From: Candidatus Nealsonbacteria bacterium
Lineage (GTDB): Bacteria; Patescibacteriota; Minisyncoccia; Minisyncoccales; CAZKCU01
NCBI GenBank assembly: GCA_047456305.1
Contig: CP179888.1
Location: 381,307 to 445,306, forward strand
Reading direction: 5' to 3'
DNA: 64,000 bases
The notes under the pieces were generated by a model. It did no database searches and was not told the origin of the DNA. It saw nothing but the letters and a program-made list of their open reading frames with translations. A program made the position numbers and the translations under genes. Shown here piece after piece: positions 57-46,892 of the stretch (positions within the stretch are counted from its first letter, which is position 1; every line of letters starts with the position of its first letter).

Positions 57-1661
57 TTGAGTGAGAATAAACAAGTAGAAAAAGAGATGCCGCTCGAAAT
101 AGAAGAAGGGTTACCCTTCACAGAGGAAATTGTTGCAGCCCAAGTTGTACCCACGAAGGGTCCAAATTGGACATTAATTTTGGCTATTATCGGTATAATT
201 GCAGCAATAGGAGTAGTGATATACTTCCTTTTCAAAAGGTGCAAAAAGGGGTTAAAGTTAAATAGGATAACTATTTTCTTGTTTATCCTTTTAATAATAT
301 TTTTATTAATTGGTACCTGGTTATATTTTTATATATCTCAAAAAAATGATACCGCGATTTATGATAGATCATCCGAATTTGTTTATACTAAAATACTAAA
401 AGTAATATCGCTTACTCCTGATCTTGTTTTGGTTGTTACAGAAAACCCAAAAGGACCGGCCGAATTAGGACCAACTGGAATATACAACTTTGATGCTGTT
501 TTTGCTGCTACCGAGAACCCGGATGACACAGATTCGAGCCTTGAAGTAATTGTTACCGAAAAAGAATTAATTAAATTATATGATAAAAAGATACTTGGTT
601 TTTATGTCCGCATAGGAGGATTACAAGGAGATGTTGAGAAAGCTAATGAGAGATATATATTTAAATTTAGAGGACTAAAATATCTCAAATTATTATTTGA
701 GGAAGGGTATCTTGACAAAGTTGATGTGGGTTTTTTCTACCCAGATCTTTTCGTAACAGAAGAAGGAAGAACAAAAGCATTTATTTTTGCCCATACTTTT
801 ATTACCTTTAAGCACGAACTGACACATCACAGATTTGCGACCGACCCGCTTTACCAGCAGGAAGTTATAGGAAAATGGAGAAGATTAGAAAATGAAAACA
901 AAAAGAAGATAATAATGGCCCTAATTAAGAGAGACTACTCTTTTGGGAGGGAAATAGATCTAAAAGAATGGAAAAAGTTAGACGAAGGTCAAAGAAATAA
1001 AAAAATAGAAGAGCTAATTAAGAAAGGTGAGAGACTATACGAGTTCATCGAAAAGGGTGAGAACCTACACGAGTTAATTCAAAAGAACAAGGAGATGGAA
1101 GAGGTAATCTTAAAGAATAGGTCACTAGTCATAGCCATTGATGAATGGATTGCACACTGCAACGAAGATAATAAGTATGATGCATTTGAGGGCGGTATAG
1201 ATGTTATGCAGGATATTACACAGAAGGACGGGGTTTGGGATAAACATTGGTATAACCTTGTAGATAAAAACGGAAAAGAACTTTTTTATAATGATAGTAA
1301 CGATGATGAAACATATAAAAAATATAGAGACAAACATCCTGAAAAATTTAGGACTACAGAAAAGCAGCCAAAGAGAGAAGAAGATATTCAGGAACCAGAA
1401 ATTTTTAACGAATTAGATGCAAACAAGTATTATAGTATCCATGGTACTTGTCCTCCAGGATATGAGTTGGTTGAATATCCGGGTGAGCGTGATATTCCGG
1501 GCCCAACCTATGCGGAGGCAACAAGACGTCTAGAGGAAGCAGGAAAGAGACTCGAGGAAGCTCCAAAAAATGATCCAGAAGCCATAATAAGAGCCATAAA
1601 AGAACTTAACGAAGCTACATTACTTTATCATCATGGACGCAGATGTGAAAAACAAAAATGA
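57..1661 (+). CDS. hypothetical membrane-anchored protein with an HExxH (HELTH) metallopeptidase-like motif; possibly 5'-partial
   Basis: Long ORF. The frame is open back to base 3, so the real start may lie upstream of the window (in-window candidates are TTG 57 and ATG 87). It has two hydrophobic helices, then a large soluble part containing FKHELTHHRF. No family recognised. Confidence 0.5.
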   Translation: MSENKQVEKEMPLEIEEGLPFTEEIVAAQVVPTKGPNWTLILAIIGIIAAIGVVIYFLFKRCKKGLKLNRITIFLFILLIIFLLIGTWLYFYISQKNDTAIYDRSSEFVYTKILKVISLTPDLVLVVTENPKGPAELGPTGIYNFDAVFAATENPDDTDSSLEVIVTEKELIKLYDKKILGFYVRIGGLQGDVEKANERYIFKFRGLKYLKLLFEEGYLDKVDVGFFYPDLFVTEEGRTKAFIFAHTFITFKHELTHHRFATDPLYQQEVIGKWRRLENENKKKIIMALIKRDYSFGREIDLKEWKKLDEGQRNKKIEELIKKGERLYEFIEKGENLHELIQKNKEMEEVILKNRSLVIAIDEWIAHCNEDNKYDAFEGGIDVMQDITQKDGVWDKHWYNLVDKNGKELFYNDSNDDETYKKYRDKHPEKFRTTEKQPKREEDIQEPEIFNELDANKYYSIHGTCPPGYELVEYPGERDIPGPTYAEATRRLEEAGKRLEEAPKNDPEAIIRAIKELNEATLLYHHGRRCEKQK

Positions 1662-2428
1662 ATCAAATAAAAAATTATCAGGCACTTATGAAAAAGATTA
1701 AATTAAATTTAAAATTAAAAATCCTTATTGGGATTCTGATTGTGGGAATTATTTCAATTGTTGGGTGGTGGATTCGGGAAAAACTTGAAACTAAAACCGA
1801 GATTAAAAAGAAAGTAGAGGTTCCTCTTGAGAAATGCATTGAAGCCTCTTCTTTTGTGGATTATTATGAAAAAGCTGGAATTCCTTTTGAGCCCGAATGG
1901 ATGAGTGGATTGATAAAGTCTGAGCCTATTCCAATAAAAATAAATTTCTCCGATATAGAGATCTATAATATCCCTCTTGAGAGGGCTGGCGGTGATTGGT
2001 TTACAGAGCCAATAATTAAATCTGATAACTTATATTGCGAATTAATAGATAAAAATATTGAGACACTTTTTGCTCCTATTCAAAAAAAAGAAGCAATAGA
2101 TTATGTTATTTTTCGATTAGTAACTCTTGGCCAAAGCGGATACGCGGTTGAACGCACTACCATTTTGGATAAGAAAGATTATGAAAATGATTATGAAAAT
2201 TATGAATGCGGTAAATCTATTTCTGATTTTGAAAAAAGAATTACTACTCTTCAGGAAACAAAAGGTGGCTTTTTGGTAAATTGGGTATATTATACTATCT
2301 TTGGCACAAGAGCTGGTTATTATGAGGAGAAAATAAAAGTTGGATATAATGCTAAAATAGAATTGTTTGAGGAAGCCAATGGATTCCTCAAGCCCTTTAT
2401 TGATTGTGGCGAAGGCGCCATATTTTAA
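1658..2428 (+). CDS. hypothetical protein with an N-terminal TM anchor
   Basis: ATGA overlap with the upstream gene. N-terminal hydrophobic helix (ILIGILIVGIISIVGWWI). No recognisable motif. Confidence 0.45.
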   Translation: MNQIKNYQALMKKIKLNLKLKILIGILIVGIISIVGWWIREKLETKTEIKKKVEVPLEKCIEASSFVDYYEKAGIPFEPEWMSGLIKSEPIPIKINFSDIEIYNIPLERAGGDWFTEPIIKSDNLYCELIDKNIETLFAPIQKKEAIDYVIFRLVTLGQSGYAVERTTILDKKDYENDYENYECGKSISDFEKRITTLQETKGGFLVNWVYYTIFGTRAGYYEEKIKVGYNAKIELFEEANGFLKPFIDCGEGAIF

Positions 2429-2522
2429 ATTAAGAAGAACTACAGGCTTGTCATTTGAGAATAGATAGCATTCAAGTTCACCTGCGAGTTCACCTGAAGT
2501 ATCATACAATTAAAGCAAAAAA

Positions 2523-2546
2523 AGCCCATCGCTGGGCTGTCTTTAT
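2523..2546 (-). terminator. hairpin terminator between convergent genes (better on the minus strand)
   Basis: AGCCCA-tcgc-TGGGCT hairpin. On the minus strand it is followed by a T7 run. It lies just downstream of the 2620 end of the minus-strand operon. Confidence 0.6.
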
Positions 2547-2619
2547 TTTCCTGTTATGAGTCATAATTGAGCGTTAAAATAACGCTTAGTTTTTACTAAT
2601 TACTGAAATTTAATTGTAT

Positions 2620-3147
2620 TTATAGCTCTAAATCAAGAATCTTCTTTCTAAGGGGTCGTTTGAATATGCCTTTACAAAGATGATTTATAATTTCAATAAT
2701 TGCGGAAAGTCCTCTCTTTATTACTTTTTCATATTCAGTAATATCTGTTTGATCTTCATCCTGCCGTGGGTGCGTGATTTTATCCCGAAATCTCTTGAGT
2801 TCTAGGAAATGGGGCCAAGAAGGATTACGCTCAAAATCGAAATCGGGGACAAATTTACAGATTAAGAATCTTAACTTATCTTCAAGTTTATGATACTCCA
2901 TTTGCTCAACAATTTGGAATCTCCCTTGTAAAATATCCAACTTCTTATCAGTTAAAAAAGCTATTTCATAGAGCTGAAAGATTTTACCTTGAGCAAGCGT
3001 GTCGCCAACATAATTAATGAACGCTTCAATCGCGCTCATTGCACAAAATATTGATACTCTATAGCATCGTTTTGCTTCTCGTTCTCTCCCCGCTTTAAAT
3101 GCTTCTTTGGCAAAGTAATTTGAATCCTCAAGATAATCTTCAAACAT
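2620..3147 (-). CDS. HEPN-like protein (R-x4-H motif), putative RNase effector
   Basis: 175 aa of helical-looking sequence. The motif LKRFRDKITHPR fits the HEPN Rx4-6H signature. The start ATG lies 1 nt after the stop of the upstream gene (TAA-C-ATG). Confidence 0.45.
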   Translation of the reverse strand: MFEDYLEDSNYFAKEAFKAGREREAKRCYRVSIFCAMSAIEAFINYVGDTLAQGKIFQLYEIAFLTDKKLDILQGRFQIVEQMEYHKLEDKLRFLICKFVPDFDFERNPSWPHFLELKRFRDKITHPRQDEDQTDITEYEKVIKRGLSAIIEIINHLCKGIFKRPLRKKILDLEL

Positions 3148-3148
3148 G

Positions 3149-4459
3149 TTATATTCTCTCTAGGGCTTTATCTGCTTCAAGTTTAATCTTTTTGGCTTCG
3201 TAGGATTTAATCGCAGCATTAGTCAATTTGAGAGTAATTTTATGTTGTTTTGCTTTGGTTGCTTGTAGGAAGAATACCTCAATCATTCTTCCCAACTCCA
3301 CATTATTAATACGCGACCCAAGACCACGATAAGTGTCGGGATCTACACCTTTTAATCTTGAACTCAGTAAAGCTTTTGCATTCAGTGGATCTTCTGGAGG
3401 AGACACTTTTGCAAGTGCGTAGTGGTGAGCTAATGCTTTTGGATTTCTCTGAAGGAACCCGCTAGCATACGCCCAGCTTGCTGCTACGCATGGATGTGTT
3501 GCTTTATTTGCAAATTCTATATATCTATCCGTGGTTCTTCCAAATACTCTTTGCCTTTGTAATTTATGAAGTCGAGCAAATTCTTGCCCCATTATTTTTA
3601 AAGCTTTGTCTGACCACTGAATTTTTTCGCGTAATTTTTTATAATACTCATCTAACCCAGGACCTGAAAAACAAACTATAGGAAGGTGAAAAGTATCTTT
3701 TTTTGCACCTTTTCCTAAGAAAAAATTAATCAATAAAGTTCTTGCTATGCGCACAGTAGGGATTCCTTTAGGACTTCTTTTATCCGCGAAATTCTGACCT
3801 TTTTCAAGTATCCCTGTAGCTTGGCACCAATCTCTTAGATCAGTACCTAAGAGATCTTCGTTCATTCTGTCTAATAAATCATTAGATATAGCAATTGAGG
3901 TATTATTTGCCATTGCAATATTAACCTTTTGTTCTATTGACAAATCGAAATAGATTCTAGCCCCATGAAAAGCTGAAACGTCTTTTTTTATCGCCTTCCT
4001 AATGGCAATAATTCTATGTTGCCCGCCAAAGACTTTTAGTGGTTTTTGGGGCCTGTAAGAAAGGTCATATTCCATTACTAAATCTTCGAAACTCCTTCCC
4101 TTTAGCGCATCGTCTTCCATCAATCGATACGCATAGTTGTCAGTATAAATTCCACGGTTAAGTTTGTAGTCCTCACTTTCCGTAGGGTCAAGTACGGCGT
4201 CTAAATCGGTTCTCGATGCAAGAACACTTGAATCAAGGTGACAACTTATGTAATAGGCTCCACTTCTTTTATCAAGCATAAGTAAACTTTTCGTTCCACT
4301 ATTTTTCTCAAAAGTTTGAAAAACTTTGAAGAACTTTTGAATTTTTCCAATTACCTTGGCGTCAGGAGTAAACCCTTTTGGAACAACAAGAAGCTCTTTA
4401 ACATTATTGTTTTCACTGTATCTTTTTTTAATTTTTGGTTTAGTCATTATATCTAACAA
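3149..4459 (-). CDS. ParB/DndB-like DGQHR-domain protein
   Basis: PLKVFGGQHRIIAIRKAI matches the (D/G)GQHR motif of DndB/DGQHR and ParB-Srx-fold proteins. The ORF starts at TTG 4459; ATG at 4447 (MTKPKIKK) is more plausible. Confidence 0.55.
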   Translation of the reverse strand: MLDIMTKPKIKKRYSENNNVKELLVVPKGFTPDAKVIGKIQKFFKVFQTFEKNSGTKSLLMLDKRSGAYYISCHLDSSVLASRTDLDAVLDPTESEDYKLNRGIYTDNYAYRLMEDDALKGRSFEDLVMEYDLSYRPQKPLKVFGGQHRIIAIRKAIKKDVSAFHGARIYFDLSIEQKVNIAMANNTSIAISNDLLDRMNEDLLGTDLRDWCQATGILEKGQNFADKRSPKGIPTVRIARTLLINFFLGKGAKKDTFHLPIVCFSGPGLDEYYKKLREKIQWSDKALKIMGQEFARLHKLQRQRVFGRTTDRYIEFANKATHPCVAASWAYASGFLQRNPKALAHHYALAKVSPPEDPLNAKALLSSRLKGVDPDTYRGLGSRINNVELGRMIEVFFLQATKAKQHKITLKLTNAAIKSYEAKKIKLEADKALERI

Positions 4460-4796
4460 ATCTTATGTAATTTTTTAAGGTTTACTTTAAAATAAACCTT
4501 TTATTTTACTCCATCACAATTATTTTACCTTATCACAAACAAAAAATAGAACAACAATCTTCTGGTAGAAAATCAGAATTCTGGAAGACTATCTAAACAT
4601 ATAAACTTTCATTTTCAACTCAAACCCTAGATAACTTGTGAGAAGGCTTTTTAGGACCAAGATGGGTAGTTATAAAAACACTAAATGTTTTATGGTTATA
4701 GTCCATTCGTGGGTAGAAAAAAGAATCAGATCCTTAATGTTGGTTCATTTTTATATTTCATTCTATCAAAAAATCGCCACTTTGGCGATTTTTCCA

Positions 4797-4891
4797 TTAA
4801 ACCCTCACTTCTAATTCAAACTTAAATGTTGTATTGCGTCCATAATCATAAAATGATATGAGCTCTTTAAACCTTCACCTCTAATTCAAAC
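4797..4891 (+). repeat. two 25-nt direct repeats spaced exactly 70 bp apart in a 520-bp non-coding region
   Basis: TTAAACCCTCACTTCTAATTCAAAC (4797-4821) and TTAAACCTTCACCTCTAATTCAAAC (4867-4891). A degenerate third copy lies near 4927. Confidence 0.7.
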
Positions 4892-4979
4892 CTCATATAA
4901 TTAGTAGACCATTGTACATGGTCTTTCTAAACCATGCCAACCAAACAGATTTAAACAACGCCCAGTCTCAGAGGTTGTT

Positions 4980-5723
4980 TTGACTCTCTTTTTTATTTTT
5001 GGTATAGTTTTCTTATTACTAATTATGGACAAATTTTTTTTAATTCAACTTACTACTAATCTTTATTACCTGACTTTGCTTTTTCCCAAAAAAGAGCCCT
5101 TGAGGTATAAAATAAGAGAATTGGCCGATGACATTTTAGCCGCCCTAATTTCATCTCCCCATCAACATAAATGTGACGAAGCAAGGCCTCGTCACATTAA
5201 CACTGGCGCTGATATTATACAAGAATTGGAAATTCTTGATAGCTTCTTTGAGGTGGCAAAAGCCCAAAACTGGGTAAGTCCGGCTGAAACCTTGAAATTA
5301 CAGCAAGAATATAGTAAGCTAAAAGAGAATTTGAAAACGCAGGTTAATTTTAATAGAAGTTTAGTACCAGCGACCCAAGTTAGAAACGTAACGAAGCAAG
5401 GCCTCGTTAAATTAAGTCCTCGGAGTGAAGGGGATTGCGAGAGGAGCCCCAAAGCTATTTTTGCTGAAAGGAGAGTAGTCAAAGAGGATAAATCCTCTTC
5501 TTCACCCTTCGCTGCGGCTCGGCTAAATGAACGCCAGAAAAAAATCTTGGGAATTTTAAAAGAAAGAGAAAAAGCCCAGGTTTGGGAAATTAAGAAAATT
5601 TTTCCCGAAGTGACCAAAAGAACTCTCCGAAGAGATTTTGAACAATTGCTAAAACAAGGATTTATTGAAAGAATAGGAGAAAAGAATGACACTTTTTACC
5701 AAGTTAAATCCAATTTTGACTAA
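4980..5723 (+). CDS. putative transcriptional regulator with a C-terminal DeoR-type winged HTH; carries repeat insertions
   Basis: The C-terminus NERQKKILGILKEREKAQVWEIKKIFPEVTKRTLRRDFEQLLKQGFIERIG is a DeoR-like wHTH. The likely start is ATG 5025 (MDKFF). The central part is built from GC-rich hairpin repeats. Confidence 0.55.
   Translation: MTLFFIFGIVFLLLIMDKFFLIQLTTNLYYLTLLFPKKEPLRYKIRELADDILAALISSPHQHKCDEARPRHINTGADIIQELEILDSFFEVAKAQNWVSPAETLKLQQEYSKLKENLKTQVNFNRSLVPATQVRNVTKQGLVKLSPRSEGDCERSPKAIFAERRVVKEDKSSSSPFAAARLNERQKKILGILKEREKAQVWEIKKIFPEVTKRTLRRDFEQLLKQGFIERIGEKNDTFYQVKSNFD
5478..5528 (+). repeat. family-A palindromic element, in frame (VKEDKSSSSPFAAARLN)
   Basis: GTCAAAGAGGATAAATCCTCTTCTTCACCCTTCGCTGCGGCTCGGCTAAAT. 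It has the same architecture and reading frame as the copies in murB, recJ and mnmA. Confidence 0.85.
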
Positions 5724-28162: not shown

Positions 28163-29068
28163 ATGAGTATTAAAAAACTTTTACCAAGAGTTAAAACGAA
28201 TACTTCTTTAAAAAACTACACTACTTTTAAGATTGGGGGTCGGGCTAAATACTTTTATGTAGCAAAAACAAAAGAGAATTTGGTGAAAGCAGTAAGGGTG
28301 GTAAAGAAAATGAAATTGCCATTTTTTGTTTTGGGAGGAGGCTCAAATTTATTGATTTCTGACAAAGGGTTTAAAGGACTAGTTATAAAATTCGGTCAAC
28401 CGCTTTCTTTATATGTTTCAAAAGGCCTAGAATGGGCAGTTGGTATTCCCGGAACTATTCAGGGAGCAGTTTGGAGTAATGCTGGCGCTTTCAAAAAGTC
28501 AATGAAAGATGTTGTTAAAGAAGTTGAGGTTTTTGATACTAAAACAGGAAAAGTTAAAATTTTTAAAAATAAAGACTGCCGGTTTTCCTACAGAAATAGC
28601 ATTTTCAGAAAGGAAAAAAATTTAATTATTCTTTCGGTAAAAATCAAATCGAAAAAAAGTAATACCAAAAAAATAAAGCAATATTCAGACTATAGAAAAA
28701 AAACTCAACCATTAGAGTTTCCTTCAGCAGGAAGTATTTTTAAGAATCCGAAGAACTTAGTGGCAGGAGAATTATTGGGCGAAGAAGATAAACCTTCTTC
28801 TTCAGCCTTCGCTGCCGCTCGGCTAATTGGCGAAGAAGATAAACCTTCTTCTTCAGCCTTCGCTGCCGCTCGGCTAATTGAAGAATGCGGATTGAAAGGA
28901 AAAAAAATTGGAGAGGTTCAGGTTTCTAAAAAACATGCAAATTTTATTATTAATTTAGGAGATGGAAAGGCAAGAGATGTTAAAAAATTGATAAATTTAA
29001 TAAAAAGAAAAGTGAAAAGTAAATTTGGAGCAAATTTGGAAGAGGAGATTCAATATTTAGGTTTTTAA
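28163..29068 (+). CDS. murB: UDP-N-acetylenolpyruvoylglucosamine reductase MurB (with a 34-aa repeat insertion)
   Basis: LKNYTTFKIGGRAKYF, FFVLGGGSNLLISD, PSAGSIFKNP, IEECGLKGKKIGEVQVSKKHANFIINLG. Confidence 0.93.
   Translation: MSIKKLLPRVKTNTSLKNYTTFKIGGRAKYFYVAKTKENLVKAVRVVKKMKLPFFVLGGGSNLLISDKGFKGLVIKFGQPLSLYVSKGLEWAVGIPGTIQGAVWSNAGAFKKSMKDVVKEVEVFDTKTGKVKIFKNKDCRFSYRNSIFRKEKNLIILSVKIKSKKSNTKKIKQYSDYRKKTQPLEFPSAGSIFKNPKNLVAGELLGEEDKPSSSAFAAARLIGEEDKPSSSAFAAARLIEECGLKGKKIGEVQVSKKHANFIINLGDGKARDVKKLINLIKRKVKSKFGANLEEEIQYLGF
28778..28879 (+). repeat. family-A palindromic element, two perfect tandem 51-bp copies, in frame in murB
   Basis: GGCGAAGAAGATAAACCTTCTTCTTCAGCCTTCGCTGCCGCTCGGCTAATT occurs twice (28778-28828 and 28829-28879). 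Each encodes GEEDKPSSSAFAAARLI. Confidence 0.95.
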
Positions 29069-29867: not shown

Positions 29868-29890
29868 AAGCTAAAAGTTTAAAGACTAAA

Positions 29891-29920
29891 TAAACCCCGT
29901 TAGAGACTAACGGGGTTTAC
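29891..29920. terminator. palindrome TAAACCCCGTTAG-AGA-CTAACGGGGTTTA between convergent genes
   Basis: Perfect hairpin shared by the hpf 3' end and the stop region of the minus-strand ATPase gene. The same arm sequence recurs at 34338-34403. Confidence 0.6.
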
Positions 29921-32123
29921 TAAAATCGATATTATATCTACCACATCTTGAGCCCAGAGAGGCAATTTTTTTTCCATCTCTTATTATATTTATTACCTCA
30001 CAACGATTTGAACACTTATGACAAGTAAAAGAAGCGGTAGTGTATTGGAAGTTAGCTAAATTAAATCCTTTAAAAAGAGATTTAGTTGGGTTGGCTTCTT
30101 GGGCAAGAATAGCCGCCCCAATTGCACCAATTATTGGGGCATGTTTGGGGACAATTACTTTATGGGAAAGTTCTTCCTCCAATGCTTTTACCACTGCTTT
30201 GTTAAGAGCAACACCTCCCTGGAAAATATAAGGTGGTTTTATATCTTTTCCCTTAGCAACCAGGGCAAGATAATTTCTGACAAGACTTTTAGCTACTCCT
30301 GATAAAATATTTTCTTTTGCCACTCCGGCATTCAATTTATGGACACAGGAGGTTGTTCCAAAGACAGCACATTTAGCGCTAATTGTGGCAGTTGATTTTG
30401 CTTTAAGGGCAAGATTACCAAATTTTTCTATTGGAATTCCTAATCTGAAGGACACATTCTCAAGGTAGGCGCCACAGCCGCCAGAACAATTATGAACTGT
30501 CAAAAGATTAGCTATATATGAATTATCATCTTCTGTTTTTAGATTATACACCTTTCCTTTAAAGTCTTTTTTTTCAATTTGTTCTATCGGCTCGAACAGC
30601 CAATTAGAATGAATAAATGACTTAAAAGGACTTCTCTTAGATACTTTTTTATCGATAAGTCTATTAATATCAGTGCCATAAACTGCAATATGATAACTGA
30701 TATTTCCACTCGTGGTCTTTTGGTTAGAATTGAAAAGTTTACATTTAATCTGATTTCCTAACAATATCCAATATAACTGATGTGCTAATTTTTCAGACGT
30801 CGTTGTTGCTGTATAGCTATTAGCGCTTTTTCCGTGTCTTTTGTCTTTTTTAATTCTAAGACAACCATCTCCTATAAAAAAACCCTTCACCAATTCCAGT
30901 TGTAGCTTTGGAGCCAGAGTCATAAGTTCTGCTGCTATTTCTTTTTTATTGCAATATTCACCACAGAGATAGTTAAATATAGAAGCGAGACTTTTATTAT
31001 AGACTTCTAACTTTAAAGTTTTGTGTTGTGGTAAAAAAGAAACTTTTGTGGATACATCAAAATTTTTTGTTAAAGTCTGAATTATTTCATCCACGTAATT
31101 TTTTTCTTTTATATTAAAAACAAATATGATACCGGCAATATGCTTAATTTTTTTGTTAGTTCTTTTTTTATTCCAAGAAAGATTGCCTTCAGCTAAATAA
31201 TAGCCTAAAACACGCAATAGTTTTGGGGTGAAGGAGAATTTACTAACTTCTCTCAATTTATGATGTTTAAGATATATAGTTTTACCTTTCCAATCTAGAT
31301 ATTCTTTGTTGTTTATTTCTTGTGGTAAGGGAGTAACAATAAAATCTCCCATTTTTAACTCTTTGGCTTGAATAAATTCTGGTTCATAAAACATTTTAGA
31401 ACCTTTCTTACATCTATGCCTTTTGCACCAATCTACATTTCTTTCTCCAAGTGGTTTACATACTCTAATCTTTTCTATTTTTCCTTCCCGAAAATCCTGA
31501 TAACATTTAATAGTATCTCTTTTCAAAGCCAAAACAGGATGTTCTGGTGTTATTTTTAATTCTTTCTTTCCTATCTTGATTTTTAATATTTTTCCACTAT
31601 AATTTCGAATAAACTTATTTTTCACTTTTTTGAATTGGCCGCGATGTGTTAATACTTTTTCATTAGGTTTAACATCTTTTATGGGTTTTGGTATGTAACT
31701 CTCAGCAGTAATTTTTGTATCGTCAGGCACACAAATTTGATTCATACCAAAGTCTATTAAAACCTCGTTTCTCAAAATAAGAATTTTACTGTCTTCTTGT
31801 CCAAGGTCAAAAATAGTTTGAGCATTGGGTATAAAATGCAAGGTGCCAACAGCATGGGCAAGGATTTCAGTTTTTGTTATATCAGCGCCAATAAAAGCCC
31901 CTCCTAATTTTCTACCTGCCCCGGTAGTTCCAACAGCTGTGATTTCAACATCTTTCCTGAGTTTTTTTAATCCCTTTTTGATGGTTTCAATCACTCCAAG
32001 GTTTTTTATATAAACCCAATCAATTAATTTACCTTCTTTTGTTATTAAGGCAAATTTTATTGTTCCATTTCCGATGTCAAGGCCCAAAGCTGCTTTTATT
32101 TTGCTGATTTTTTTCGTTTCCAT
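29907..32123 (-). CDS. BcrAD/BadFG-type ATPase (acyl-CoA dehydratase activase-related) interrupted by an intein
   Basis: N-extein is LGLDIGNGTIKFAL...AVGTTGAGRK...DLGQEDSKILIL...FGMNQI. C-extein is CSGGCGAYLE...SAKCAVFGTTS...IFQGGVALNKAVVKALEEEL...GAIGAAILA, plus a C-terminal CHKCSNRC...RCGRY Cys cluster. Confidence 0.85.
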   Translation of the reverse strand: METKKISKIKAALGLDIGNGTIKFALITKEGKLIDWVYIKNLGVIETIKKGLKKLRKDVEITAVGTTGAGRKLGGAFIGADITKTEILAHAVGTLHFIPNAQTIFDLGQEDSKILILRNEVLIDFGMNQICVPDDTKITAESYIPKPIKDVKPNEKVLTHRGQFKKVKNKFIRNYSGKILKIKIGKKELKITPEHPVLALKRDTIKCYQDFREGKIEKIRVCKPLGERNVDWCKRHRCKKGSKMFYEPEFIQAKELKMGDFIVTPLPQEINNKEYLDWKGKTIYLKHHKLREVSKFSFTPKLLRVLGYYLAEGNLSWNKKRTNKKIKHIAGIIFVFNIKEKNYVDEIIQTLTKNFDVSTKVSFLPQHKTLKLEVYNKSLASIFNYLCGEYCNKKEIAAELMTLAPKLQLELVKGFFIGDGCLRIKKDKRHGKSANSYTATTTSEKLAHQLYWILLGNQIKCKLFNSNQKTTSGNISYHIAVYGTDINRLIDKKVSKRSPFKSFIHSNWLFEPIEQIEKKDFKGKVYNLKTEDDNSYIANLLTVHNCSGGCGAYLENVSFRLGIPIEKFGNLALKAKSTATISAKCAVFGTTSCVHKLNAGVAKENILSGVAKSLVRNYLALVAKGKDIKPPYIFQGGVALNKAVVKALEEELSHKVIVPKHAPIIGAIGAAILAQEANPTKSLFKGFNLANFQYTTASFTCHKCSNRCEVINIIRDGKKIASLGSRCGRYNIDFSKPR
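30489..31733 (-). mobile_element. 415-aa intein with a LAGLIDADG homing-endonuclease domain
   Basis: Begins with Cys (CVPDDTKI, codon 31733-31731). TxxH block (ITPEHPVL). LAGLIDADG motifs LGYYLAEGN and VKGFFIGDGC. Ends ...YIANLLTVHN, followed by the +1 Cys (codon 30488-30486). Confidence 0.9.
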
Positions 32124-32150: not shown

Positions 32151-33281
32151 TTATTTTTCCCTCTCCTTTTTTCTTTTAATCATTTCAACAAAAGCCTCGA
32201 TTCTGTTATCTATAGCTGTTTCAGATGTATTCTCATCAAAGGAAAGAGCAAGAAAGGGGATATTATATTTTTGGGAAATTGTCGGCAAAAACATCTGGGC
32301 AATGTTTTCTGGCATACAGCCTCGGGGTTGGATAAGAATAAGGCCATCATAGCCTTCTTTTCCGTAAAGGATAGCTTTTCCAATTGATTGTTGGTCCTCG
32401 CCTCCACCCGGGACCTTTAAATATTGAGGAGCAATCATATGCTTTATCCACCAACGGGGAAAATTTAGTTTAACTGAAGCGAGCAACCATCCTGCTTCAG
32501 ATGTTTTTTGGCTTACAAGTACACCTCTTTCCCCAAGTTTAGATTCTATATTTTTATTGACAAAAGGTTCAAGGACGCAAAAAGCTTCCCCAAGTATCCC
32601 TACCTTTAAAATATCATGAGGGTCTTTCTTATCTCTTTTTATAATTTTAAACATTTCATTTATTTTTAAATTTAGCAAACTCATTTCTTTTAATGTTTGA
32701 GCTTTATCTACTTCTTTGAGAGCTTCTTCCATTACTTTTGAACTTTCACCCTTTCTTAACTCATAGGGTCTTGTCTTTCTGGCTAAAATTTCTATTTTTT
32801 CTATAACTTTTAATTTTCTCCAAAAAAAAGGAATGGGTTTTAAGCTTTTTTTTAGTGATATTTTGGGATTTGCTTTTTTTAGAGTTTTTATTGCATCTTG
32901 AGGGTTACTTGCAGTAATTATTCTAAATTTATATCCAATCTTTTTTAATGTTATTCTTTGGAGTTTAGAATAATAGCGAAGCCTGCAGAGACTTCCTTTC
33001 CCACCAGCCATAATTATGACCGTTGCTCCTTTTTCAAGGCACTCTATCATATTACCAAGAGTGAGCTTATATGGATAACAGGCGTCTGTTGGAGAATATT
33101 TTACCCCAAGTTTTTCCGTGTGTTTGGAGATTGGAGGCGGAATTAAAACATTAAAACCAAGCTTTTCAAGAAATGCTTTACCAGCAATCCAGGTATATCC
33201 GCAATTGGGAAAGGTGATAATTTCTTTCATAGTGTTGATTATTTCTGAATTTATATTTAATTTGCGAAGCAAATTGCCCAC
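32151..33281 (-). CDS. acyl-CoA dehydratase activase-related protein (DUF2229/HGD-D-like subunit)
   Basis: ITFPNCGYTW...SPTDACYPYKLTLGNMIECLEKGA...GSLCRLRYY...LSFDENTSETAIDNRIEAFVEMI. The probable true start is ATG 33230 (MKEIITF), because the first 17 codons of the ORF are a repeat element. Confidence 0.7.
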   Translation of the reverse strand: MGNLLRKLNINSEIINTMKEIITFPNCGYTWIAGKAFLEKLGFNVLIPPPISKHTEKLGVKYSPTDACYPYKLTLGNMIECLEKGATVIIMAGGKGSLCRLRYYSKLQRITLKKIGYKFRIITASNPQDAIKTLKKANPKISLKKSLKPIPFFWRKLKVIEKIEILARKTRPYELRKGESSKVMEEALKEVDKAQTLKEMSLLNLKINEMFKIIKRDKKDPHDILKVGILGEAFCVLEPFVNKNIESKLGERGVLVSQKTSEAGWLLASVKLNFPRWWIKHMIAPQYLKVPGGGEDQQSIGKAILYGKEGYDGLILIQPRGCMPENIAQMFLPTISQKYNIPFLALSFDENTSETAIDNRIEAFVEMIKRKKEREK

Positions 33282-33327: not shown

Positions 33328-34239
33328 TTAACCTTTTCTTTTTAACATTTCGAGGAAGGCCTCAATTCTTGTTTTGACGGTTTCTTTGCTAGTGTTTTCA
33401 TCAACAAGGATAGAAAGAATTGGTTTTTTTGAGTCTTCAAGCAATAACTGTTCATGGAGAAGAGAATCCGGACCGCAATTGAAAGAAGAAATAAGAATGA
33501 GGCCTGATATTTTTTTAACAGATAAGGCCCAATAAGCAGCTCCAATAACTTCCCTTTCATATGACCAATAAATAAAAGGCTTTTCTTTGAGATATCTATC
33601 AGAAAGAGATTGAGGCACAAGATTAGAGGTGATAACATTGACATTTTGCTTTTCTATTTCAGAGATTAATCCTTGATTGATATAATTATCATAAATGTTA
33701 TATTCGTGACCTACCACGGCGACAGTAAGGAGAGGCGAGGCTAATTTTTTTTGAAACTCCTTTTCAAGAGAAATTTTATTCATTTCTTGGGCATTAAGAG
33801 CCGCTCTCCAAGCTTTTATAATTTTTAGAGGGTTTTTTTTAAGTTTCAAGCCCAAAAGGAAAAAAGAGAGAAATATTGGTTTTCTTTTAATATTGATTGT
33901 TGTCGTTAATATCTTTTGGGGGGATTTACTCCTGATGACCATGGTAGCTGTATCTGGTAAGGTTATAAGCTTTGGGCAGGTTATACTTTTTTTATCGATT
34001 ATCCAGTATCTTGGGATAAAAATCCAGTCGCATTTATCAATAAGGTCAAGACAGTGCCCATAAAAATTTTTTACTGGAATACAAAGTTCATCAACTGATT
34101 TTTTTGTTCCCTGTTCAACTATCTTTTTGTTTGTATCAGATGAGTTAACAACCTCCATTCCGAGTTTTTTAAAGAATACCTCCCAGAGACTGTGATATTT
34201 ATACCAAAGTAATCCTTTGGGAAGACCTATTTTTTTCAT
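33328..34239 (-). CDS. acyl-CoA dehydratase activase-related protein (DUF2229-like subunit)
   Basis: IGLPKGLLWYKYHSLWEVFFKKLGMEVVNSSDTNKKIVEQG...ELCIPVKNFYGHCLDL...LSILVDENTSKETVKTRIEAFLEML. Confidence 0.7.
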   Translation of the reverse strand: MKKIGLPKGLLWYKYHSLWEVFFKKLGMEVVNSSDTNKKIVEQGTKKSVDELCIPVKNFYGHCLDLIDKCDWIFIPRYWIIDKKSITCPKLITLPDTATMVIRSKSPQKILTTTINIKRKPIFLSFFLLGLKLKKNPLKIIKAWRAALNAQEMNKISLEKEFQKKLASPLLTVAVVGHEYNIYDNYINQGLISEIEKQNVNVITSNLVPQSLSDRYLKEKPFIYWSYEREVIGAAYWALSVKKISGLILISSFNCGPDSLLHEQLLLEDSKKPILSILVDENTSKETVKTRIEAFLEMLKRKG

Positions 34240-46457: not shown

Positions 46458-46460
46458 GAT

Positions 46461-46892
46461 GTCCCAGTAAGTCTGTAAGCCGAATTCTGTCTTGCCCTCC
46501 CAACTTTTGCCACGGGATTTCAAAAAAATCAGCAAATTCTTTGGCAAAAGTTAGGAGGGTGAAGTGATTATCTATCTAGGCCTGAGATTGCTCCCAGGCT
46601 CAAGCGAACTACTTTGAACCCTTTCAACTTTGCGTAAAAAGTTGCGGGGCTTTGTTCTTGCTCTTGGGCAGGAATTTAACCGTTTCACTCCCGGAGTTAC
46701 CTCCAGGATTCATCCAATTATTGGATGCCTCTTGTCTTACGATTTGAGGCGTCACTGTTCGCATCCCTCGTCTCGCGACGTACGGGTATTGCCCGTTACC
46801 ATTTTAACCAGTTTTAAAACTGGTAAGAGTTCGGACTTTCCTCCCCCTTTTTCTGATTAGAAAAAGAGAGCAATCACTCAACTTACAAGGAC
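46461..46892 (-). ncRNA. rnpB: RNase P RNA (bacterial type)
   Basis: The minus strand contains GGGGGAGGAAAGTCCGAACTC (the universally conserved GAGGAAAGUCC region) near the 5' end and ACAGAATTCGGCTTACAGAC (the ACAGAAnnCGGCUUA region) near the 3' end. P1 pairs GTCCTTGTAAGT at the 5' end with ACTTACTGGGAC at the 3' end. Confidence 0.9.

Follow-up and report, generated by a model that had tools for sequence, protein, structure and literature searches.

The stretch of DNA analysed here (hereafter the window) comprises 64,000 nucleotides of a Candidatus Nealsonbacteria bacterium (contig CP179888.1, positions 381,307 to 445,306). It carries a three-gene minus-strand operon, the last gene of which encodes an ATPase of the BcrAD/BadFG family that is interrupted by a predicted intein with LAGLIDADG motifs. 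The only long open reading frame (ORF) over this element (29907..32123; positions are those of the window, and features lie on the minus strand unless stated otherwise) encodes a precursor of 738 amino acids (aa) plus the stop codon, which is identical to a protein (P0172) in a collection of 15 billion proteins. The precursor is composed of an N-extein, aa 1-130 (31734..32123), that ends in ...DFGMNQI, a 415-aa intein (30489..31733) that starts with CVPDD at precursor aa 131 and ends with TVHN at aa 545, and a 193-aa C-extein (29910..30488), so that the exteins (130 + 193) would make up a protein of 323 aa once spliced. These limits and lengths had been proposed in a preliminary description of the locus, made from the sequence alone, and were confirmed to the base.

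The N-extein corresponds to the N-terminal half of a BcrAD/BadFG (ASKHA) ATPase and contains the phosphate motifs LGLDIGNGTIK and DLGQEDSK, while the Fe/S domain and the second ASKHA lobe belong to the C-extein, together with an extension at the C-terminus. The Pfam family BcrAD_BadFG (PF01869) matched the precursor with 122.6 bits (cut-off 31.5) in two pieces flanking the insert, and the NCBIfam model TIGR00241 ('acyl-CoA dehydratase activase') with 164.7 bits (cut-off 125.4). When the spliced 323-aa extein was compared with PDB sequences using phmmer, it matched MbdQ (9GAI_D, 4e-28), HadI (4EHT, 7e-28), HgdC (1HUX, 5e-25) and DCCP-R (7YYL_E, 1e-19). An AlphaFold2 (AF2) model of the spliced extein, with a predicted local distance difference test score (pLDDT) of 93.2, superposes on MbdQ, HadI and HgdC at 1.7-2.5 Å and is predicted to have the ASKHA fold (template modelling (TM) scores of 0.87-0.90 to 9GAI_D, 4EHT and 1HUX). 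By these sequence matches, the host is an 'archerase'-type ATPase of the BcrAD/BadFG/HgdC/DCCP-R family, with a predicted function in ATP-driven electron transfer. Outside the HgdC core, it has a C-terminal CxxCxxxC...C motif (29943..30023; C286, C289, C293 and C312 of the spliced protein) that is conserved in 114-118 of 118 homologues, with β-strands 280-308 in the model; the ATPases that have DUF2229 partners thus probably possess an additional metal or Fe-S site of their own.

The sequence of the insert was examined in an alignment (A1) of 15 inteins, consisting of the window's insert and 14 inserts cut out of database proteins. Block A (CVPDDTKITAESY, 31695..31733) starts with Cys1 (codon 31731-31733), which is invariant in 15/15 related inteins, and block B, TPEH (31539..31550), has invariant T62, P63 and H65. 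The first LAGLIDADG motif (LLRVLGYYLAEGN, 31182..31220) contains invariant G177, Y178, L180 and G183, with A181 and the catalytic acid E182 conserved in at least 90% of the sequences; in the second motif (LVKGFFIGDGC, 30861..30893) both G288 and the catalytic acid D289 are invariant. The corresponding helices of the window copy, LGYYLAEG and KGFFIGDG, each end with the catalytic acid. Blocks F and G (GKVYNLKTEDDNSYIANLLTVHN, 30489..30557) include the stretch VYNLKTEDDNSYIANLLTVHN, in which D403, S405, Y406 and the terminal Asn415 are invariant and the penultimate His414 is at least 90% conserved. Thus, every motif listed in the preliminary description (Cys1 in CVPDD, TPEH, two LAGLIDADG motifs, and HN followed by a +1 Cys) is present, and the window copy has every residue needed for class-1 splicing.

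The predicted blocks were recovered in profile searches as well: the insert scored above the cut-offs for Pfam Intein_splicing (47.4 bits versus 35.8) and LAGLIDADG_3 (28.4 versus 22.5) and for NCBIfam intein_Cterm (21.8 versus 15.6), and just below the cut-off for intein_Nterm (22.6 versus 24.5). An AF2 model built on alignment A1 reached a pLDDT of 86.6 and a predicted TM score of 0.87, being weak only at residues 80-110 and 151-160. In a Foldseek search of the PDB with this model, the top hits were the inteins TliVMA (4.9e-19), PI-SceI (9e-18), PI-PkoII (1e-16) and PI-PfuI (4e-14), followed by the free-standing LAGLIDADG enzymes I-DmoI (~1e-6), I-Tsp061I and I-OnuI (1e-8 to 1e-5); the best PDB match of the intein by sequence was also PI-PkoII (1.4e-8). 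Residues 170-352 of the model display the pseudo-dimeric α-β-β-α-β-β-α order. By conserved residues, profile matches and predicted structure, the insert represents a canonical class-1 intein, in which a two-motif LAGLIDADG homing-endonuclease domain interrupts the Hint splicing domain; both splicing and DNA cleavage are predicted for it. Its GC content is 0.296, compared to 0.346 and 0.387 for the exteins, and a hidden Markov model of this intein lineage detected no second copy in the 64-kb window.

Between block B and the endonuclease domain, the Hint domain contains an optional four-cysteine insert (31410..31505; intein aa 77-108, with C77, C92, C103 and C108), which is modelled with a pLDDT of 53-57. 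This insert is present in most of the inteins found at the same ATPase site and in two of those found in partner proteins (see below) and is cleanly deleted in others; in one relative (P0128), all its cysteines are replaced. The four-cysteine insert may be a metal-binding (zinc) knuckle for DNA recognition.

The search for intein-less alleles in relatives, proposed in the preliminary description, was successful. A search with the spliced extein retrieved 498 homologues, and no intein is present in any of the 120 that were listed; eight intein-free homologues with 75-93% identity were among these matches. The uninterrupted junction FGMNQI^CSGGCGAYLE (here and below, ^ marks a splice or insertion junction), which had been put forward as the splice product, is encoded by three intein-free genes (P0001, P0002 and P0008). 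The first of these (93% aa identity) encodes ...LVDFGMNQICSGGCGAYLENV..., which is exactly the predicted ligation product. The contig of P0001 (L081) is syntenic with the window: its positions 1-960 correspond to window positions 32649-31731 with 87% nucleotide identity, and positions 951-1539 align to window positions 30495-29907 with 92% identity, the next gene matching too. At the junction, L081 reads ATGAATCAAATT^TGTAGTGGC, with GTAGATTTTGGCATGAATCAAATT^TGTAGTGGCGGTTGTGGCGCCTAC as the 48-bp stretch around the empty site, and the window reads ATGAATCAAATT^(1245 bp)^TGTTCTGGC. Because the syntenic intein-free allele runs through the junction without interruption, the 1245-bp insertion is exact. 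The patchy spread of the intein among close relatives is compatible with its mobility.

Next to this junction, the serine codon that follows the +1 Cys (30483-30485) is TCT in the window and AGT in L081, a change that takes at least two substitutions. Co-conversion from the donor during homing may have left this trace, or the endonuclease target may have been altered.

The ratio of nonsynonymous to synonymous substitution rates (dN/dS) between the exteins of the window and L081 is 0.134 at dS 0.25, a value that averages both lineages since their divergence, so that a very recent loss of function would not show. The host gene has therefore remained under purifying selection. This would be difficult to account for unless the intein splices and thus argues for a splicing-competent element.

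The residue that follows the intein is the Cys at precursor aa 546 (codon 30486..30488; aa 131 of the spliced protein), which is predicted to serve both as the splicing nucleophile and as the first [4Fe-4S] ligand of the ATPase. Correspondences were counted along phmmer alignments of the spliced extein to the PDB sequences 1HUX, 4EHT, 9GAI and 7YYL. C131 aligns with the Cys of MNDKCAAGTGRFL (motif MNDKC), which is residue 127 in 1HUX and residue 115 in chain E of 7YYL, whereas the Cys of SAKC (30369..30371; C170 of the spliced protein) aligns with residue 166 of 1HUX and residue 152 of 7YYL_E. Both C131 and C170 are invariant in 118/118 homologues. In HgdC, Cys127 and Cys166 are reportedly the cluster ligands, according to Locher et al. 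in 2001. For DCCP-R, C115 and C152 have been described as coordinating the bridging [4Fe4S] cluster (PMC9351452). In the model of the spliced extein, C131 lies just after strand 121-127 and C170 immediately before helix 171-183, that is, at the N-terminus of the predicted 'cluster helix'. The alternative ligand Cys135 (position +5, in CSGGC) was rejected, as only 23/118 homologues have Cys at this position. Hence, the assignments of the preliminary description, with the +1 Cys as one [4Fe-4S] ligand and the Cys of SAKCAVFG as the other, are borne out by the alignments, and its proposal that a Cys ligating the cluster doubles as the +1 nucleophile of the intein is supported, the binding of the cluster being predicted. 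That the ATPase would be strictly dependent on splicing, as also claimed there, is a sound deduction.

The following mechanism can be proposed, all steps of which we infer from conserved residues. Translation would yield the 738-aa precursor, in which an N-S acyl shift at Cys1, helped by Thr and His of block B, would be followed by an attack of the +1 Cys thiol on the thioester, giving a branched intermediate. Cyclization of Asn415, helped by His414, would then release the 415-aa intein, and an S-N shift would produce the native peptide bond in ...GMNQI-CSGGCG.... After splicing, Cys131 and Cys170, together with the same pair of a second subunit, would hold the bridging [4Fe-4S] cluster. The unspliced protein could not be an active electron donor: since 415 residues part strand 121-127 from the ligand Cys, the precursor would be unable to assemble the Fe/S domain. 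Once freed, the intein is predicted to cleave alleles that lack it, at ATGAATCAAATT^TGTAGTGG..., and to be copied into them by homing. The presence of the intein at this particular residue can be explained by the need for a +1 Cys, Ser or Thr and by the invariant motif, which offers a conserved DNA target and, at the same time, would keep the host from deleting the intein imprecisely.

The two other genes of the operon encode partner proteins. The first gene (33328..34239) codes for a 303-aa protein with a DUF2229 domain and a weak HGD-D match, and the second (32151..33281) for a 376-aa protein that combines DUF2229 with the HGD-D C-terminal region; the latter region aligns weakly (E 0.04-0.2) with the double-cubane protein DCCP (7YYL_C and 6ENO). 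This gene order is kept beside two intein-free relatives of the ATPase (L082, L084) and beside five intein-bearing ones (L001-L005), while the contigs of L006 and L007 do not cover partner 1.

The same codon of the ATPase gene is occupied by related inteins (42-51% identity) in at least 14 other public sequences. The carriers are P0121-P0126, P0128, P0173 and L001-L007, the last being seven species representatives that include a complete Nealsonbacteria genome (CP179887, L001). In addition, two N-terminally cut fragments (P0137 and P0138) end in the same ATPase-site junction, and P0147 has a 160-aa mini-intein at this site. All ATPase-site carriers with an organism label are Patescibacteria, and the database label of the intein-bearing proteins is only 'BadF/BadG/BcrA/BcrD ATPase family protein'. 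The same-site junctions conform to the consensus ...MNx(I/V/L/M)^C...HN^C(A/S/G)(A/G/S)G..., and in L006 and L007 the penultimate His is lost (VAN and SRN, respectively). The same-site hosts belong to the CAAGTG subfamily, with exteins 42-49% identical to that of the window; within the CSGGCG subfamily, no intein other than the window copy was found. Two shorter candidates for mini-intein carriers were rejected: P0066 (513 aa) proved to be a tandem-ATPase fragment and P0077 (566 aa) a partner-ATPase fusion.

Related inteins (36-45% identity) were also found in the DUF2229/HGD-D partner protein, inserted at two further conserved Cys. Site a, ...S(A/S)(E/D)M(M/F)^C...HN^C(F/M)P(F/Y)K, is occupied in P0129, P0130, P0132 and L009, and site b, ...H(L/I)xP(L/F)x^C...HN^C(M/S)PE, in P0127, P0133, P0135, P0136, P0141, P0145, P0174, P0175, P0180, L008 and L010-L013. 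At site b, P0141 and P0145 carry mini-inteins that lack the endonuclease. In a weak alignment (E 0.04-0.2), this site coincides with the Cys of FCQP, close to the C-terminal end of DCCP. Some of the host contigs with partner-site inteins are labelled Dehalococcoidia or Pacearchaeota rather than Patescibacteria. In partner gene 2 of the window, the two corresponding sites, ACYPYKLTLG and RGCMPENI, are both uninterrupted. By contrast, a contig of Patescibacteria group bacterium Yes71-31 (L006, JASEJL010000004.1) has two inteins in a single operon (1590-3611 and 4001-5254), one in partner 2 at ...LLPAF^C..CHN^CMPE and the other at the ligand Cys of the ATPase, the latter ending in VAN rather than VHN.

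In a neighbour-joining tree of these inteins (Poisson-corrected distances, 200 bootstraps), the ATPase site received a support of 94%, site a 100%, site b 98%, and sites a and b together 96%, compared to 60% for all three sites together. An exclusive radiation of inteins within the operon was considered and dropped because of this weak support and because a methyltransferase intein (P0134) is about as close to the three site lineages as they are to one another. A profile search of 1.84 billion representatives returned thousands of LAGLIDADG inteins; just a handful of 50%-identity clusters fall at the three sites. Judging from these comparisons, the window copy belongs to a small site-specific intein lineage of Patescibacteria, the nearest relatives of which appear to have colonized two further conserved Cys sites in the partner protein of this operon.

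Taken together, the 1245-bp insert is very probably a selfish, mobile and splicing-competent class-1 intein with a two-motif LAGLIDADG homing endonuclease. Several observations weigh against this interpretation or parts of it. The closest known intein is just 51% identical, therefore no recent donor has been sampled, and a recent gain cannot be separated from an older gain followed by precise loss in the relatives. The window copy departs from two near-invariant positions, R326 (Gly in the window) and Y187 (Trp), both in the endonuclease domain, which may mean that the nuclease is deteriorating, even with splicing intact. The selection estimate is subject to the averaging mentioned above.

In another interpretation, a single intein lineage would be specialized on one Fe-S operon of the candidate phyla radiation (CPR) and would have moved ectopically among three non-homologous sites. 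Its splicing would respond to the redox or Fe-S state and thereby control, after translation, the assembly of an oxygen-sensitive enzyme. The grounds for such coupling would be that the +1 residue of each copy is a conserved, probably metal-binding thiol; as a whole, this scenario seems rather improbable to us. We also consider it unlikely that the window's intein is a domesticated conditional switch, with splicing gated by redox or Fe-S status, restricting maturation of the ATPase to reducing, anoxic conditions. The gate could be a disulfide of Cys1 or the +1 Cys with the +5 Cys of CSGGC, or a metal bound to the four-cysteine insert. Indeed, one thiol would act as both splicing nucleophile and cluster ligand, the window subfamily has an extra Cys (C135) four residues downstream that is shared by just 23/118 homologues, the Hint domain contains a four-cysteine module, and the literature, including PMC8891592, describes redox-sensitive inteins in DnaB and in the Fe-S assembly protein SufB. 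However, the eight closest homologues (75-93% identity) lack the intein and yet retain the same CSGGC/CGGGC motif and operon, so the host does not need it; moreover, conservation of the endonuclease motifs is what a selfish mobile element would show, and relatives can dispense with the four-cysteine insert.

Conversely, the element might be dead, that is, an intein that no longer splices, which would make the ATPase gene de facto a pseudogene. The two altered positions in the endonuclease domain would fit this possibility, as would L006 and L007, in which the loss of the penultimate His indicates that the lineage tolerates drift. Yet the ORF runs uninterrupted through 738 codons, every splicing residue is preserved, the altered residues belong to the nuclease and not to the splicing domain, the dN/dS of the extein is 0.13, and the operon partners are intact, all of which makes a dead element highly unlikely. 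Finally, a chimeric metagenome join or an annotation artefact that mimics an insertion, for which one could cite only that the exact protein has no gene record in the contig index, is hardly credible given that the insertion keeps the reading frame with codon-level precision, that the same protein is present in the 15-billion-protein collection, and that independent assemblies carry homologous inteins at the same codon.

For the selfish splicing intein that we favour, the novelty lies in the host protein and the site; the mechanism appears to be ordinary and no concept is changed. It is well known that inteins occur in proteins of metabolism, ATP binding and Fe-S assembly, for example in SufB. 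The positional logic, a conserved motif with Cys at +1, is already established, SufB being the Fe-S precedent. The host was called atypical in the preliminary description, which holds insofar as the family has not been reported to host inteins in the literature searched but not beyond that, as Fe-S protein hosts are known and at least 14 sequences have an intein at the same site. Our literature search revealed no paper that links inteins with BcrAD-type ATPases, enzyme activase or 2-hydroxyglutaryl-CoA dehydratase; the main text of the Novikova 2016 intein survey does not mention an archerase-type host, and a search for inteins in CPR yielded only work on rRNA introns. Archerase-type ATPases and their DUF2229/HGD-D partners, which are strictly anaerobic, low-potential Fe-S enzymes, can now be added to the list of intein hosts. 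Because the nucleophile itself would be a cluster ligand, maturation of the apo-protein and binding of the cofactor would compete for the same thiol.

The main added value, in our opinion, is the colonization of one operon at multiple sites. The three sites in two proteins, with up to two inteins in one operon, the mini-intein derivatives and the sister allele without an intein (87-92% DNA identity) form a compact natural system for studying the ectopic spread of inteins, and one that could be used to ask whether splicing is redox-conditional. In addition, by occupying invariant Cys sites of the partner proteins, the inteins point to residues that are likely to be functional, in an operon that is widespread.

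Upstream of the operon, promoter-like sites were found in a consensus scan, and the same scan predicted a terminator-like hairpin with a 15-bp stem (29889..29921) that overlaps the stop codon of the ATPase gene. The surrounding genes of the window (GC 36%) are housekeeping genes of bacterial type, namely murB, hpf, secA, secDF, a sigma factor gene and the gene for RNase P RNA; together with the Patescibacteria labels of the related ATPase-site loci, this gene content makes a CPR bacterium the most likely source. Within the ORF at 28163..29068, which encodes the MurB homologue, there is a perfect 51-bp tandem duplication (28778-28880, plus strand; 2.0 copies, 100% match) that encodes GEEDKPSSSAFAAARLI twice in the C-terminal domain. 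It lengthens the match to Pfam MurB_C, in which 130 residues cover 95 profile positions, and, being in frame, seems to have arisen very recently. The RNase P RNA (46460-46889) is of the bacterial class A and scored 119 bits; at 430 nt, compared to 367 positions of the model, it is longer than the consensus through insertions.

More distant relatives of the intein (23-31% identity) were detected in IscU/NifU-type scaffolds, in SufB, at a class II ribonucleotide reductase (RNR) site and in methyltransferases. The IscU/NifU-type carriers (P0143, P0144, P0149, P0151-P0154 and P0157) are interrupted at both conserved Cys motifs, the first being GNPS^C..^CGDVM and the second FKTFG^C..^CGAAIATSS. These are the cluster-ligand motifs of such scaffolds, so that the +1 residue is once more a Cys that binds a cluster. 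In SufB, the site is ...YVEG^C..HN^CTAP (L027, L059 and L072), and in the methyltransferases it is DVG^C..^CGxG, in the S-adenosylmethionine-binding loop. The common factor of the intein sites is a conserved Cys in an invariant motif and not Fe-S chemistry as such.

Among known systems, the intein in Mycobacterium tuberculosis SufB is likewise a class-1 intein with an endonuclease domain and has the same set of Cys1, block B His, penultimate His, terminal Asn and +1 Cys; its host takes part in Fe-S metabolism and depends on splicing for its function (PMC8891592). In contrast to the window's electron-transfer ATPase of the ASKHA type, this host is an ABC-type scaffold, the SufB inteins are just ~24-28% identical to the one described here, and the +1 Cys in the window would belong to the ligands of the mature enzyme's permanent [4Fe-4S] cluster. 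The inteins of solved structure TliVMA (7QSS), PI-SceI (1VDE), PI-PkoII (2CW7) and PI-PfuI (1DQ3) share the Hint domain split by a two-motif LAGLIDADG endonuclease (TM 0.55-0.64) but have only 11-17% identity to the window's intein and reside in V-ATPase subunit A, DNA polymerase and RNR; where PI-SceI has its DNA-recognition region, the window's intein has the four-cysteine insert. With regard to the host, the model superposes on HgdC, HadI, DCCP-R and BcrAD-MbdPQ (1HUX, 4EHT, 7YYL_E and 9GAI) at 1.7-3.2 Å over ~260 residues, both cluster-ligand Cys are kept, and the gene similarly adjoins HGD-D-like partners. The solved archerase ATPases, however, have no intein and read CAAGTG after the ligand Cys, compared to CSGGCG in the window subfamily, which also differs from them by a 55-aa C-terminal extension with four conserved Cys and by partners of the DUF2229 type. 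A further close system consists of the same-site inteins, for example those of Candidatus Paceibacterales bacterium (P0121) and the other Nealsonbacteria genome (L001), which share the codon, the architecture and the operon with the intein of the window.

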